The notes beneath the pieces were generated by a model. It worked only from the letters and a program-made list of their open reading frames with translations, did no database searches and was not told the DNA's origin. DNA of 64,000 bases from Paraspadella gotoi (Eukaryota > Animalia > Chaetognatha), in contig CM119268.1 in NCBI GenBank assembly GCA_051294375.1, forward strand, positions 14,529,396 to 14,593,395. The letters run 5' to 3'. This document shows, in pieces, positions 20,294-37,253 of this stretch; position 1 is the stretch's first letter, and each line of letters opens with the position of its first letter. A program made the position numbers and the translations under genes.

Positions 20294-23111
20294 CTACGCC
20301 TGAGCCTGAGGACTCTGCCACAAGAAAGGAGCGACGACTCCGAACACGCAGACGAGAATTCCGAGGAGAGCAAACGCCTAAAAACATTCTCCAGTAACAT
20401 TATTGTGATTTGATTCTTCTCAACAATAACGAATCATAAATAACTTTAATCCCATAACAAATTATCCTCTCCACCCCATTCTTCTTCAGACTTTTAGATA
20501 TTTTGAATTTTCAATAAATGACTTCTTAACAAGAATGAGGTCTAATATCTAACTAGAAAACTAGGGAAGAAAGTAACTTTTAACCTTGTGTTGTATAGTT
20601 GCTTCCTCTATTTCCAGAAGACAACACTAACATCCCTCTCCCCATTACATTATAAAAGATTATACTTTACATAAAGATAATTAAATCTAATATATAGTGA
20701 TATTTATTAAATTTTTACAGTTATTTTTGAATTTTAATATAAAATTTTAAAGTCTAATATAGTAAAACAAGTATATAATTTACCACAACAAACCGCTAAG
20801 ACTTAAGTCAAGTAAGAGTCTTCTCTTAAAAGAGCTACAAAACAATAAAATAATTTTCAACCCTGACCATTGACTTTTACCATGGAAGCGATTCTGGCGG
20901 CGTGTTCGACGCCGTCGACGCCGAAGCAGACGACGCCGACGACGAGAAGAAAGGCGCTCACCGCGAAGAACTAAATGTCGTGAAAACAAAAACATATAGT
21001 AAATAATAGTAATTACTTATAAAGTCACAACAATTTTTAGCTTTTTGACTTAGTCTCGTCTTTCCTGCTAAGGAAATTAAACGCTGTTTTTTCAATTTTT
21101 TTTTAAATAATCCATATTAAATTTTTAATATATATATTTTTATACTTTTGATATAATTTTTATGTGTCTCACCAGGTAACTTTTCCCCGTGATGTCCGTC
21201 GAATTACAGCAGGTGGCAAGGAGGACGACGACGGAAAGCAAGATGGCGGCCACCAGCACGGCCTCGTAAGCGTGACCTAGACCTGACCGTGTCAAAGTCG
21301 ACGCTTTTAAAATCAATCGTTTGAAGTTTGAAATTTGCAATAAATAATGACGACGCTGTGGCAGCAAGACTTAAAGCGTCCTCAGCCTCGTCTCAATGGC
21401 TGAGCAGGCTAAATCATCTCATTCCATCCGTGCGTCCGGGTTCAATCCCGCGGTATCCCGGTTCTGGCTTAAATGTGACGGTGCGGTATAAACATCCAGT
21501 GACAGGAGGCGGTCACTGAGGGTCCGCAGCCCCTACGCCAGTTGGTGAGAAACCTCGCGCCCGGGTATCACAGGCTATTCTCCCGTTGCCATAAGTGGTG
21601 AGCCCTACTATCGAACACACGCAACCGCTGCGCACCGTGCGCCCGAGCTTACGTCGCTTAGAGTATGCATATCACGCCTATGCCCTACTTCTCTGGTAAC
21701 GCTCCAGACCTCGCTCGCTCGCCCGCTCGCTCTCACTATGGCAATGAGATCAAAACCTTCTCTCAGACATCTCCTCAGGATTGAGGCCCCTGTGGAGAAG
21801 TCTGGTGGGGGGATCCTGTGGCAGCAAGACTTAAAGCTGCCTCACTGCTGTCCGTCCTCAGCCTCGTCTCAATGGCTGAGCAGGCTAAATCATCTCATTC
21901 CATCCGTGCGTCCCGGGTTCAATCCCGGGTATCCCGGTTCTGGCTTAAATGTGACGGTGCCGGTAAAAAACATGCCAGTGACAGGAGGCGGTCACTGAGG
22001 GTCCGCAGCCCCTACGCCAGTTGGTGAGAAACCCCGCGCCCCGGGTATCAACGTCGCCCCGGGTATCACAGGCTATCCTCCCGTTGCCATAACGCTACCT
22101 GATCGATCGATCCTGCCGTGCTGTGGCGGTTGATACTCGTACATTGAGATGGCGAGAATACACGCGATCTGTAGAGTAAAAAAAATGTCACATCAAGTAT
22201 GGCTAATTTAGAATATAAATCTGAAAGCCTTTAACATTTTGTAGCTGTACTAAAGTGTCGTTAGTATTTATTGCCTTTTCATCGCTTTCGTCGAACATCC
22301 TTTTAGTGCAGGTATATGATGCCCTAATGTATCCTTTTTTTTTTTCAAATGTTTTCACATTCATGTCTGTGGAACTCGTTCCCACCAAAAGAATTTACGG
22401 AATTTCTCAATCGGAACGGCGACCGATTTGGATGTTAATTTATATCGTTTTAATTGCATACGGTTAGGCAATTAAACTGAGGGTAAAACGGTCCGCGGGG
22501 AACGCGCTCTGGAGTCGTAAATGTTTTCGGAGCAAATTGCATTTAGTCCACCTATCTTTCATGATTAAGAAACCTTTTTTTTTTTTATGACTAAATTAAG
22601 GGAAAAACGATGAATTAGAATTTCATGCGCATATTTCGTTATAGACAGACCTTCAGTTAGTCTTAGTAAATTTTAAAAAAAACCTAAAAGTTAAATTTGA
22701 TCTTTTCGGCGCATTCTCGTTCCGATCTCACTCAATCACTGCGACGACGCTGAAGCGCTGAGGTCGAATCTTTCTTCTCTACTCAATCGCTTCATATTTG
22801 CTTTCTTCTCTCTGACGAGTTTAACTTCGGAAGAAAAAGGATTTTGAACTTCGCTTTTTTTAGCCCCAAAATTTACTTCTTTTTTTTTTTCTTCGCCCAA
22901 AATTGTTGAAAATGTTTTAATACTTCTTAGTATCTCGCGCATTTATCTAATAATTACAGTTTAATTTCAAATTTTAATAAATACAGTAAGTGCTAATGAA
23001 AAAAAAAACATTCTTTCCAAAATGAAAAGTGGAAACCCATAAATATTATTAATCCGTTACCATGACGACGATGGAGATAATGGACATGATGCTGATGCGA
23101 ATCGTCGCCAT
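20294..23111 (-). CDS. Small four-TM membrane protein, paralog 3 (about 134 aa, 5 exons; extra intron splits exon 2)
   Basis: Exons 23111-23061 (MATIRISIMSIISIVVM), 22168-22099 (IACILAISMYEYQPPQHGRIDRS), 21282-21173 (GLGHAYEAVLVAAILLSVVVLLATCCNSTDITGKSYL; alternative in-frame AG 6 nt downstream), 20970-20881 (FFAVSAFLLVVGVVCFGVDGVEHAARIASM), 20377-20294 (AFALLGILVCVFGVVAPFLWQSPQAQA*). Confidence 0.83.
21464..21541 (+). ncRNA. Twister ribozyme (type P5 permutation) in the 5' LTR of element A; degenerate copy
   Basis: CTGGC-TTAA-ATGT-GA-CGG-TGCGGTA-TAA-ACAT-C-CAGTGAC..GTCACTG-AGGG-TCCGCAGC-CCCT-AC-GCCAG. The G of the GC pseudoknot dinucleotide and one P1 base are missing relative to the other LTR. 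Confidence 0.65.
21873..21926 (+). promoter_or_regulatory. Candidate Pol III type-2 internal promoter (A and B boxes) in the LTR of element A
   Basis: TGGCTGAGCAGG (A-box-like) about 43 nt upstream of GGTTCAATCCC (B-box-like). The same pair occurs in the 5' LTR at 21397 and 21439. Confidence 0.5.
21940..22020 (+). ncRNA. Twister ribozyme (type P5 permutation) in the 3' LTR of element A
   Basis: P5 CTGGC/GCCAG; P2 ATGT/ACAT; GA-CGG pairs with CCG of loop L4 (TCCGCAGC); GC after P2 pairs with GC of L4; P3 CAGTGAC/GTCACTG; P4 AGGG/CCCT. The UAA site reads as an A-run here. Confidence 0.7.
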
Positions 23112-34842: not shown

Positions 34843-35738
34843 TGGTCTTTTCATACAATTGAAACATTCTTTGAAATATTTTCCACTTCATTGATAGGGA
34901 AGCAGGTACTCTGGGAGTGAATAAACGAGTCTGTGAAAGAGTCTTGATTGAAAGCTTGCAGGGACCTGCTATGTCATTATCTTGTAAGAGTGATGGAGGC
35001 CTTAAACCACCAAAGCCTGTCCAAAGTCAGGGGCAAATAGCTTATTTATTAAATGAATGGATAATTTTTATATTGGTTGTACCAATTTCATAAAATTCAG
35101 CTCCTTGTATTTTGATGCTAGTGCGGAGTACAATAAGTATTCCCGATCTAATATTTAAGGGAGTGGTCTTTTCATACAATTGAAACATTCTTTGAAATAT
35201 TTTCCACTTCATTGATAGGGAAGCCAGGTACTCTGGGAGTGAATAAACGAGTCTGTGAAAGAGTCTTGATTGAAAGCTTGCAGGGACCTGCTATGTCATT
35301 ATCTTGTAAGAGTGATGGAGGCCTTAAACCACCAAAGCCTGTCCAAAGTCAGGGGCAAGATAGCTTATTTATTAAATGAATGGATAATTTTTATATTGGT
35401 TGTACCAATTTCATAAAATTCAGCTCCTTGTATTTTGATGCTAGTGCGGAGTACAATAAGTATTCCCCGATCTAATATTTAAGGGAGTGGTCTTTTCATA
35501 CAATTGAAACATTCTTTGAAATATTTTCCACTTCATTGATAGGAAGCCAGGTACTCTGGGAATGAATAAACGAGTCTGTGAAAGAGTCTTGATTGAAAGC
35601 TTGCAGGGACCTGCTATGTCATTATCTTGTAAGAGTGAGGAGGCCTAAACCACCAAAGCCTGTCCAAAGTCAGGGGCAAGATAGCTTATTTATTAAATGA
35701 ATGGATAATTTTTATATTGGTTGTACCAATTTCATAAA
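34843..35738. repeat. Tandem repeat, about 322-bp unit x 2.8
   Basis: Units start at 34843, 35164 and 35488 (TGGTCTTTTCATACAATTG...). The array is absent from the duplicate copy near 46080. Confidence 0.9.
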
Positions 35739-35836
35739 CGGGGGTGACCTAATAACGAGTCTCGTTGGCGGGAAAACTGTCCAGTATGGCAACAGCCAGG
35801 TTGCCTGTGATGCCCATTGGGATGGGGCATCTCACT

Positions 35837-35917
35837 GTTGGCTTTGGGGGCTTCCGACCCTCAGTGACGCATCCAGTCACTGGCGCGGTTACCCTAGGAC
35901 GGTCTCGCTTTGCCAAC
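35837..35917 (-). ncRNA. Twister ribozyme (type P5 permutation) in the 3' LTR of element B
   Basis: GTTGGC-AAA-GCGA-GA-CCG-TCCTAGGG-TAA-CCGC-GC-CAGTGAC-TGGATGC-GTCACTG-AGGG-TCGGAAGC-CCCC-AAA-GCCAAC. The core is complete: UAA, GA, UNNNAAGC loop and both pseudoknots. Confidence 0.82.
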
Positions 35918-36234
35918 GCAGAGGGAAGTCGTTAGGACTGTGGATGGAACACTACGCCTGGGATGGTGTGTTCCCCCTCTGAGCCAATGGATTTGGCTGA
36001 CGGATGGTGGACGTGAGGCGGTGTGAATATACCGCCACAGGATCCCCGGGCCAAGACATCACTCAGGTTCCTCAAGCCTGAGAGGTGTCTGACAAGACTG
36101 TTACCATAGTGGGAGAGAGAGAGCGCGAGTTGTGGGGGCATAGGCGTTTGTCGTAGCGTACCCCAGGGGCATAGGCGTTTGTCGTAGCGTACCCGAAGTC
36201 GGCAGGGCATAGGCGTTTGTCGTAGCGTACCCTG

Positions 36235-36270
36235 AGAAGGTTGCGTGTTCGAATCACGTCGGGCTCACCA
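36235..36270 (-). promoter_or_regulatory. Extended primer-binding site complementary to the tRNA-Trp 3' half
   Basis: The + strand reads AGAAGGTTGCGTGTTCGAATCACGTCGGGCTCACCA, matching the variable loop, T-arm, acceptor strand and CCA of eukaryotic tRNA-Trp(CCA). It lies 2 nt from the 5' LTR end. Confidence 0.85.
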
Positions 36271-36324
36271 CTTATGGCAACAGCCAGGTTGCCTGTGATG
36301 CCCATTGGGATGGGGCATCTCACT

Positions 36325-36404
36325 GTTGGCTTTGGGGCTTCCGACCCTCAGTGACGCATCCAGTCACTGGCGCGGTTACCCTAGGACGGTCTCGCTTTGC
36401 CAAC
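36325..36404 (-). ncRNA. Twister ribozyme (type P5 permutation) in the 5' LTR of element B
   Basis: Identical to 35837-35917 except for one C after P4. Predicted U^A cleavage between 36378 and 36377. Confidence 0.82.
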
Positions 36405-37253
36405 GCAGAGGGAAGTCGTTAGGACTGTGGATGGAACACTACGCCTGGGACTGAAGAATATATTCCATTCTCGAACTTGTGAGTGTTCCCCCTCTTGAGG
36501 CTCAACTGGATTGGCCTCGACGAGATGGTGGACGTGAGGCGGTGTTAATATACCGCCACACCAGCTTCTTTCTCTCTCTCTCTCTCTCTTTCTTTCTCTC
36601 TCTCTCACTCATACTCGGATTTGTTTGTTTTATTTACGTTGAACGATTCATCGTGTCAATGAATGACTATCATCGCATCAATGAATGATTCTCATCATAT
36701 CAATGAATGACTATCATCGTATCAATCATTTGGTTATCATCGCATCAATCATTTGGTTATCATCCCATCAATTCATCAATCATCGCGTCAATTTTTTATC
36801 TTTTTTTATTTCTTTATTTCCTTCTCTCGTCAGGCGAGATCCTGTTCTTTTAAGATTTTTTTTTATTGTTCGGTGAGCTCATAAGAGAAAATTTTCTGAG
36901 CTTGAAATCGTACTGTTGTAAAACAGGCACAGAATAAGTGAGTCATGAATCCGTTTTTGTACTTAACTGTTATTTAAAACTTTTTTCCTTAGTTGAGTAT
37001 CTATAGCGGAGACTACAATCTTTTACTATTTTCTTCTCGATTTAATGTTCACCGAAGTTCGCAAAAATTTAATGTAAAGATACACTAGGAAAATAACAAA
37101 TAATTTATTTGAATTAGGTTATATTCAGTTATCCTTAACAATGAATCGAGAAAAATGGTGATTAAAATAATTTTAATTTTGAATTATTAAAATCGGCGAA
37201 AAGGAAAAAAAATAAAAAAGCTTTCATGGAACTTCATTCGGTATTGAGTCCCG

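Follow-up and report, generated by a model that had tools for sequence, protein, structure and literature searches.

The window analysed here, a stretch of 64,000 nucleotides of contig CM119268.1 from Paraspadella gotoi, raises the question of whether a twister-like ribozyme carried in both LTRs of a retroelement is built to work in pairs. An initial annotation of this DNA had proposed that the P1 hairpin of the fold is replaced by an 8-nt near-palindrome and that the copies in the two LTRs pair with each other to form an 8-bp P1, so that efficient cleavage would need a transcript containing both LTRs. The window is eukaryotic in character and AT-rich, with microsatellites and C2H2 zinc-finger exons. 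Near-identical blocks containing such exons are found 9.4–11.3 kb apart at ~31000–51400 and stem either from a recent tandem duplication or from duplication in the assembly.

Two related elements, A and B, were delineated (Table 1). The LTRs of B are identical at 248 of 254 aligned positions, the 5′ LTR carrying an extra insertion of ~33 nt. Element A has the same overall build (two LTRs, a 4-bp TSD, a PBS, and a PPT), and 152 of 226 aligned positions (67%) are identical between its LTRs and those of B. Neither element is overlapped by an ORF of at least 150 aa among the ORFs of the window. In public sequencing run X1, 9,438 contigs align on 521 bp of B, and many different flanks adjoin the LTR ends (125 contigs at 35785 and 109 at 36039). 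Summed depth was about twofold higher in the LTR than in the internal region, a ratio that we did not take as a copy number. The elements belong to a high-copy, non-coding LTR family. Their LTR ends (21357, 21593, 35785, and 36560) follow the pattern TGT...ATA instead of TG...CA, and each LTR opens with a hairpin whose AT-rich loop may contain a TATA-like box. Three tandem hairpin units of ~26 nt, possibly a packaging signal, are present in the internal region of B (36138–36232), with one related piece in A near 21676–21690. A 322-bp unit, repeated ~3 times (34843–35750), directly adjoins element B.

Table 1. Positions of elements A and B and of their features in the window.
Feature	Position	Strand	Basis or remark
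Element B, non-autonomous LTR element, 776 bp	35785..36560	-	TSD CTGG at 36561-36564 and 35781-35784
5′ LTR of B, 288 bp, TGT...ATA	36273..36560	-	Alignment with 3′ LTR
3′ LTR of B, 255 bp	35785..36039	-	Alignment with 5′ LTR; contig flank joins
P5-permuted twister-like fold, 3′ LTR of B	35837..35917	-	Weak partial Rfam twister-P1 match; covariation with A
P5, 3′ LTR of B	35912-35917/35837-35842	-	Descriptor coordinates
P2 3′ strand, GA, and T1 triplet, 3′ LTR of B	35900-35908	-	Descriptor coordinates
8-nt self-complementary P1 slot, UCCUAGGG	35892..35899	-	Directly after GA-CCG, before UAA
UAA of L1, 3′ LTR of B	35889..35891	-	Predicted cut after 35891 (U), before 35890 (A)
P2 5′ strand, 3′ LTR of B	35885-35888	-	Descriptor coordinates
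P3, 3′ LTR of B	35863-35881	-	Descriptor coordinates
P4/L4, 3′ LTR of B	35847-35860	-	Descriptor coordinates
Second twister-like fold, 5′ LTR of B	36325..36404	-	8-mer 36379-36386, UAA 36376-36378
PBS of B, tRNA-Trp type, starts TGGTGAGCCCGA / TGGTGAGCCC	36232..36270	-	Matches CsRn1-clade PBS (PMC2582038, accessible part)
PPT-like GGGGATCC ahead of 3′ LTR of B	36040..36047	-	Same motif in A
Element A, B-related non-autonomous LTR element	21357..22091	+	TSD ACGC at 21353-21356 and 22092-22095
LTRs of A	21357-21593 and 21817-22091	+	Comparison with B
Twister-like fold, 5′ LTR of A	21464..21541	+	7-nt slot 21482-21488, then UAA
Twister-like fold, 3′ LTR of A	21940..22020	+	8-mer UGCCGGUA at 21958-21965, then A-run; copy without UAA

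In each LTR, the strands follow one another in the order P5, 3′ strand of P2, GA, triplet, short segment, UAA, 5′ strand of P2, GCC, P3, P4/L4, and P5, which is the order of a P5-permuted twister when compared with the Rfam consensus. Between B and A, both sides of T1 are exchanged (CGG/CCG and CCG/CGG, respectively), and compensating changes are also found in P2 (CCGC/GCGA and ACAU/AUGU) and P5 (GUUGGC/GCCAAC and CUGGC/GCCAG). Conversely, UAA, GA, GC, and the frame of L4 are preserved. The L1 region combines UAA and GA-CCG with a P2 of 3 bp plus C-A in B, and UAA and GA-CGG with a P2 of 4 bp in the A family; a contig of run X10 has a G-U pair in P2. The C-A in B is the first pair of P2 (35888, 35905); since it occurs in both LTRs and none of the variant rows shown (40 of 98) falls there, it seems to be a family state, located beside the active site. 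The motif U-NNN-A-A-G-C of T2 and P4/L4 is exact in B and has C for the first A in A. Such an A-to-C change in L4 and defects in P2 are tolerated in twisters, according to the accessible part of PMC11662667. The fold in the 5′ LTR of A is one base short at GCC and lacks the G of T2.

Searches of Rfam at the gathering threshold returned no match for the LTR fold. Below threshold, partial matches to twister-P1 (RF03160) scored 16.1 bits (E 2.8) and 14.2 bits, compared to a threshold of 67.2, and Twister-P5 (RF02684) gave no match at E values up to 10. The lack of a match at threshold is expected if P1 is shortened and P3 inserted, but membership of the twister class thus rests on our own descriptor. 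The latter, written after B had been seen, matched twice in the window, compared to a mean of 0.01 (maximum of 1) in 100 Markov resamples; the covariation between A and B is the stronger support for the fold. The fold probably acts as a twister in the setting of an LTR retrozyme, and cleavage is predicted. We placed the cut at U-A by analogy with the U-A of twisters (PMC8501958, accessible part), which puts the two predicted cuts of B 487 nt apart. As defined, Rfam Twister-P5 and the plant retrozymes do not include this fold. The motif of the B/A family had no match in viral and metagenome contigs. Loose twister patterns mostly returned chance matches, with six parsed motifs among 128 loci and four among 121 loci; one of the latter four was a rice-like type-P1 motif and the others had no convincing P4. 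A P3-type pattern returned a single locus, which was set aside.

As described in the initial annotation, only 8 nt separate the triplet from UAA in B: positions 35889–35899 (minus strand) read UCCUAGGG followed by UAA, and the same 8-mer is present in the other LTR of B. The corresponding description of A, UGCCGGUA followed by UAA, is right for the family and wrong for the copies in the window, in which the 8-mer precedes an A-run or a 7-mer precedes UAA. In public contigs covering the 3′ LTR of A, T at position 21966 accounted for 86,525 of 89,297 in depth in run X1, 31,230 of 31,542 in X5, and 2,207 of 2,300 in X9 (97%, 99%, and 96%, respectively). This dominance indicates that UGCCGGUA plus UAA reflects the state of the A family, although neither copy in the window retains it intact.

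The 8-mers of A and B were also correctly described as self-complementary when G-U pairs are allowed, with self-duplexes of about −11 kcal/mol, and as too short for a stable hairpin, the best ones being at +2.7 (B) and +5.0 (A) kcal/mol. In the LTR fold, a hairpin P1 would have no more than 2 bp (+2.7 to +5.4 kcal/mol), and 8 bp are reached only between copies. Full self-complementarity, with G-U allowed, was found for 1,200 of the 63,993 8-mers of the window (1.9%). With the two outer pairs taken for granted as the stub of a hairpin, an equally stable self-duplex is obtained with 7 of 256 possible 4-nt middles for B and 2 of 256 for A.

P5-type twisters of phages and bacteria served as controls. 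From at least 140 loci, 105 distinct motifs were parsed and 103 P1 segments were kept, a 34-nt mis-parse (L332) and a 3-nt match (L260) having been dropped. Among the matches listed (n = 103), P1 was 11–26 nt long (median 18 nt) and formed a stable hairpin (median −12.7 kcal/mol); none of the 103 had a P1 of 4–10 nt, although the patterns allowed such lengths. Twenty control loci were compared with Rfam Twister-P5, in the consensus of which P1 has 8 bp. Eighteen passed the threshold; the other two (one below threshold, one without match) were those with the shortest P1 segments kept, L008 (11 nt) and L261 (12 nt). Among the matches listed, 4 of 72 control P1 tetraloops were self-complementary and 13 of 72 had a pairing centre. 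The P1 slot of the LTR twisters lies outside the natural range of the listed controls, a prokaryotic set obtained with a search pattern that leans to the Rfam consensus, and displays no shift to stable capped hairpins. Several P5-type matches were detected within 1.4 kb of single phage contigs (four in L307:81-1402 and three in L266:81-1268).

Conservation of the palindrome in other subfamilies had been put forward as a test of the proposal, and it was observed for the main versions: all four have 8 nt and are self-complementary, while the centre is broken in a minor state of B (3.2%). The versions are UCCUAGGG, present in both B LTRs; UGCCGGUA, of the A family; AGCCGGUU, the majority line of loose-end contigs (33 in X1, 26 in X5, and 5 in X9), which is mixed since agreement is 0.65–0.70; and AACCGGUU, from one contig of depth 24 in run X10. 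Their duplexes range from −10.1 to −11.0 kcal/mol and their hairpins from +2.7 to +5.4 kcal/mol. Across the four versions, pair 1:8 is U-G/U-A/A-U/A-U and pair 2:7 is C-G/G-U/G-U/A-U, whereas pair 3:6 is always C-G and pair 4:5 is U-A (B) or C-G (A group). The combination of weak outer pairs and strong middle pairs makes a poor hairpin and a good duplex. Pairs 1:8 and 2:7 covary, which fits a hairpin and a duplex equally; because adjacent bases are unable to pair in a hairpin, only pair 4:5 separates the dimer from the hairpin.

The minor state of B (35895 T>G; 48 contigs and 42,759 of 1,322,681 in depth in X1, 0.3% in X9) has UC at the centre, so that pair 4:5 is broken. It was the one variant of the B 8-mer found in the rows shown (40 of 98), and rarer or compensating ones are possible beyond these. 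Its duplex is at −6.1 kcal/mol and its hairpin, at +1.5 kcal/mol, is the best of six 8-mers. The spread of this sub-lineage indicates that a perfect palindrome is unnecessary for some spread. In A, a minor UG state (1.9%, 6 contigs) retains a wobble pair, and A>C was found at position 8 of the 8-mer (1.8%). The centre states seen are therefore CG, UA, UG, and UC, three of which, including both main ones, can pair. Run X11 spans the 8-mer of B and lists no difference there; a contig of run X13 (8 of its 13 differences shown) ends at 35887. Neither added a state. An RNA origin of runs X9 and X11 is a guess. By our own estimate, the chance of one palindromic tetraloop (~0.06) multiplied by that of a second pairing state (0.2–0.5) amounts to a few percent, and the palindrome thus looks selected.

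Pairing of the two LTRs into an 8-bp P1 proved topologically possible, a strand-swapped double twister being fully nested in secondary structure. In constrained folds of the 776 nt of B, the swapped arrangement reached −268.3 kcal/mol, compared to −260.1 kcal/mol for two monomers with open 8-mers and −258.1 kcal/mol for two monomers with 2-bp hairpins. This advantage of 8–10 kcal/mol shows feasibility only, since the swap would gain in this way from any palindromic sequence. An unconstrained, pseudoknot-blind fold of a 762-nt piece speaks against the proposal, the probability of the 8-mer duplex being at most 0.003, although the inner swapped P5 had a probability of 0.72 in that ensemble. Free folding of the predicted circle, with a program blind to pseudoknots, revealed no twister.

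These observations can be accommodated in the following model. The P1 hairpin would be replaced by the 8-nt self-complementary segment, the partner of which would most simply be the other LTR in the same transcript; we infer that transcription runs through both LTRs. Each core would be completed by the 5′ strand (P5, P2, GA, and T1 triplet) of its partner. The resulting strand-swapped double twister would share an 8-bp P1 and cleave itself with higher efficiency than a lone twister does. Two separate transcripts could pair to the same effect. Cleavage at both U-A sites would release a 487-nt unit, which, by analogy with retrozymes, might circularise with LTR sequence at the junction. Such a circle, containing one weak ribozyme, would resist re-cutting and could be a template for the reverse transcriptase of a CsRn1-type Ty3/gypsy element. 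Twisters are very fast cutters, and an element replicating through circles therefore has to keep its twister inactive in the monomer. If the model is correct, a palindromic P1 would provide a simple switch, convergent with that of double hammerheads, and a regulatory role for a stem regarded as dispensable.

Selection of the 8-nt segment for pairing with a second copy, resulting in dimer-assisted cleavage, is in our judgement an evenly balanced proposition. Within it, we read the dimer as enhancing the rate without being strictly required. Strict dependence on two LTRs is doubtful: the P1 slot is palindromic in four of four main versions, which speaks for the pairing initially proposed, but P1 is reported to be dispensable in twisters and the UC sub-lineage of B propagated. 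Only tentatively, then, would we see here a first dimer-dependent twister, nearly inactive as a single copy and cutting as a strand-swapped pair, in a non-plant LTR retrozyme.

The same sequences might belong, though we hold it rather unlikely, to a twister that needs no partner to cut, in which the 8 nt would be open or form a minimal P1 (2 bp with a CNNG loop, or 3 bp with a 2-nt loop) stacked on T1, the palindromic centre being incidental. One LTR contains all of P5, P3, P4, T1, and T2, and P1 is dispensable or near-neutral in the twisters assayed. According to the accessible parts of the sources, twisters without P1 retain an almost wild-type cleavage rate (PMC5408937), the length, stability, and defects of P1 have no effect on cleavage in 1,948 type-P1 twisters (PMC11662667), Schistosoma mansoni variants with a poor P1 are active, some of them less so (PMC8501958), and the env22 twister forms only the 2 central pairs of P1; one paper calls the cleavage of P1-less twisters inefficient. 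The twisters of these studies differ from the LTR fold, in which the ends of P1 are tied by an 8-nt linker. The covariation of pairs 1:8 and 2:7 and the fixed C3-G6 suit a hairpin equally, and the minor B variant that spread is the one with the best hairpin. Pair 4:5 has two main states, and these, UA and CG, differ by a double transition, the most frequent kind of double change. Against incidental palindromy, both main centre states pair, compared to 13 of 72 loops in the listed controls, as do three of the four states seen. The hairpins also remain unfavourable (+2.7 to +5.4 kcal/mol), with no move to stable GNRA- or UNCG-capped forms, unlike the controls among the matches listed. Cleavage as a monomer stays alive because a single pair is discriminating, a pair-breaking sub-lineage has spread, and P1 is known to be dispensable.

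LTR retroelements package dimeric RNA through palindromes, as at retroviral dimer-initiation sites. The 8-mer could accordingly be a genome-dimerisation kissing loop on a monomer-cutting twister, pairing RNAs for the Gag of a helper and having no part in catalysis. A central kiss of 6 bp requires no strand swap, and cleavage would leave the 8-mer at the 3′ terminus of the unit RNA. This explanation is improbable given that the palindrome occupies exactly the P1 slot, with exactly 8 nt, a position that argues for catalysis rather than packaging, whereas the free P3 loop (7–8 nt) is non-palindromic in both A and B. It is far less probable still that the fold is a relic or mimic of a twister that no longer cuts and owes its conservation to the youth of the copies. 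The Rfam score far under threshold, the C-A mismatch in P2 of B, and the damage to both window copies of A would fit a dead fold, but T1, P2, and P5 covary between LTRs that are only 67% identical, and UAA, GA, GC, and the L4 motif are kept, the defects in P2 and L4 being of a kind reported to be tolerated.

The tRNA-like complement of the PBS of B extends over ~39 nt, beyond the usual 18, as judged against what we take to be the sequence of tRNA-Trp. A diverged version of this long complement is present in the PBS region of A (21596–21630, plus strand). ARAGORN found no tRNA. In both elements, the LTR end and PBS pair with an internal segment (21581–21606 with ~21715–21750 in A, 36260–36285 with ~36075–36105 in B), with differing sequences and energies of −27.7 and −30.1 kcal/mol; this predicted pairing may hide or present the PBS. 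Ty3/gypsy elements of the CsRn1 clade have a PBS, TGGTGAG/CCCCGT/A, for tRNA-Trp and a 4-bp TSD (PMC2582038, accessible part). Both features are present in the B/A family, which differs from these elements by the lack of gag and pol. From this match, a CsRn1-type Ty3/gypsy element is the likely helper of the family. No helper element was found within the window.

The LTR fold shares with type-P5 twisters (RF02684) the catalytic-core residues and the strand order P2 3′ strand, GA, T1 triplet, P1, UAA, P2, GC, and P4/L4. It differs by a P1 of 8 nt in all, instead of an 8-bp hairpin in the consensus, by a P3 arm and a closing P5, by CGG/CCG at T1, and by its location in a eukaryotic LTR. A weak-P1 twister tied to a retrotransposon is also known in Perere-3 of S. 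mansoni (PMC8501958). These T-variants are type-P1 and non-LTR, with one copy at the 5′ end and a P1 completed by the target site, and the accessible part of the paper does not mention dimers.

The assumption of the initial annotation that hammerheads dimerise through palindromic helix III loops is well founded. In the accessible parts of PMC4209133, PMC6765202, and PMC7761336, hammerheads with a helix III of 1–2 bp and a palindromic loop dimerise in tandem repeats, and the double hammerhead is thought to permit cutting of multimers and to spare the monomeric circle (PMC4209133, PMC6765202). Minimal type-I hammerheads of this kind, with a short helix and palindromic loop near the cut and tandem copies, are described in Penelope-like elements, a newt satellite, and non-LTR retrozymes, where the strand-swapped dimer restores the short helix. 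An unstable short helix, a palindromic loop, and tandem copies are likewise present in the LTR twisters, although the ribozyme is of a different class and the tandem consists of two LTRs with cuts 487 nt apart. The analogy is weaker for twisters, since hammerheads need helix III whereas P1 of twisters is reported to be dispensable. If cleavage depends on the dimer, two-LTR transcripts would yield a unit-length circle unable to re-cut itself, and the switch of double hammerheads would have been reached by convergence.

Our search of titles and abstract openings, most subscription journals being outside its reach, returned no twister LTR retrozyme and no twister acting as a dimer. Animal retrozymes are described, in the accessible sources, as having no LTR, PBS, or PPT. 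The layout of LTR retrozymes (a ribozyme in both LTRs, a 4-bp TSD, a PBS, a PPT, and no ORF) is that of the B/A family. As far as the accessible parts of the sources go, plant LTR retrozymes (PMC4918200) are similarly non-coding, with a ribozyme in each LTR, a 4-bp TSD, and a PBS and PPT of the Ty3/gypsy type, but combine a type-III hammerhead with a tRNA-Met PBS, whereas the B/A family combines a twister-like fold with a tRNA-Trp-type PBS. The hammerhead of the plant 5′ LTR cleaves within a one-LTR transcript (PMC4918200, PMC9695139). Should the monomer prove able to cut, LTR retrozymes would still be widened beyond the hammerhead elements of plants by a high-copy LTR element that has putative twisters and a tRNA-Trp-type PBS.
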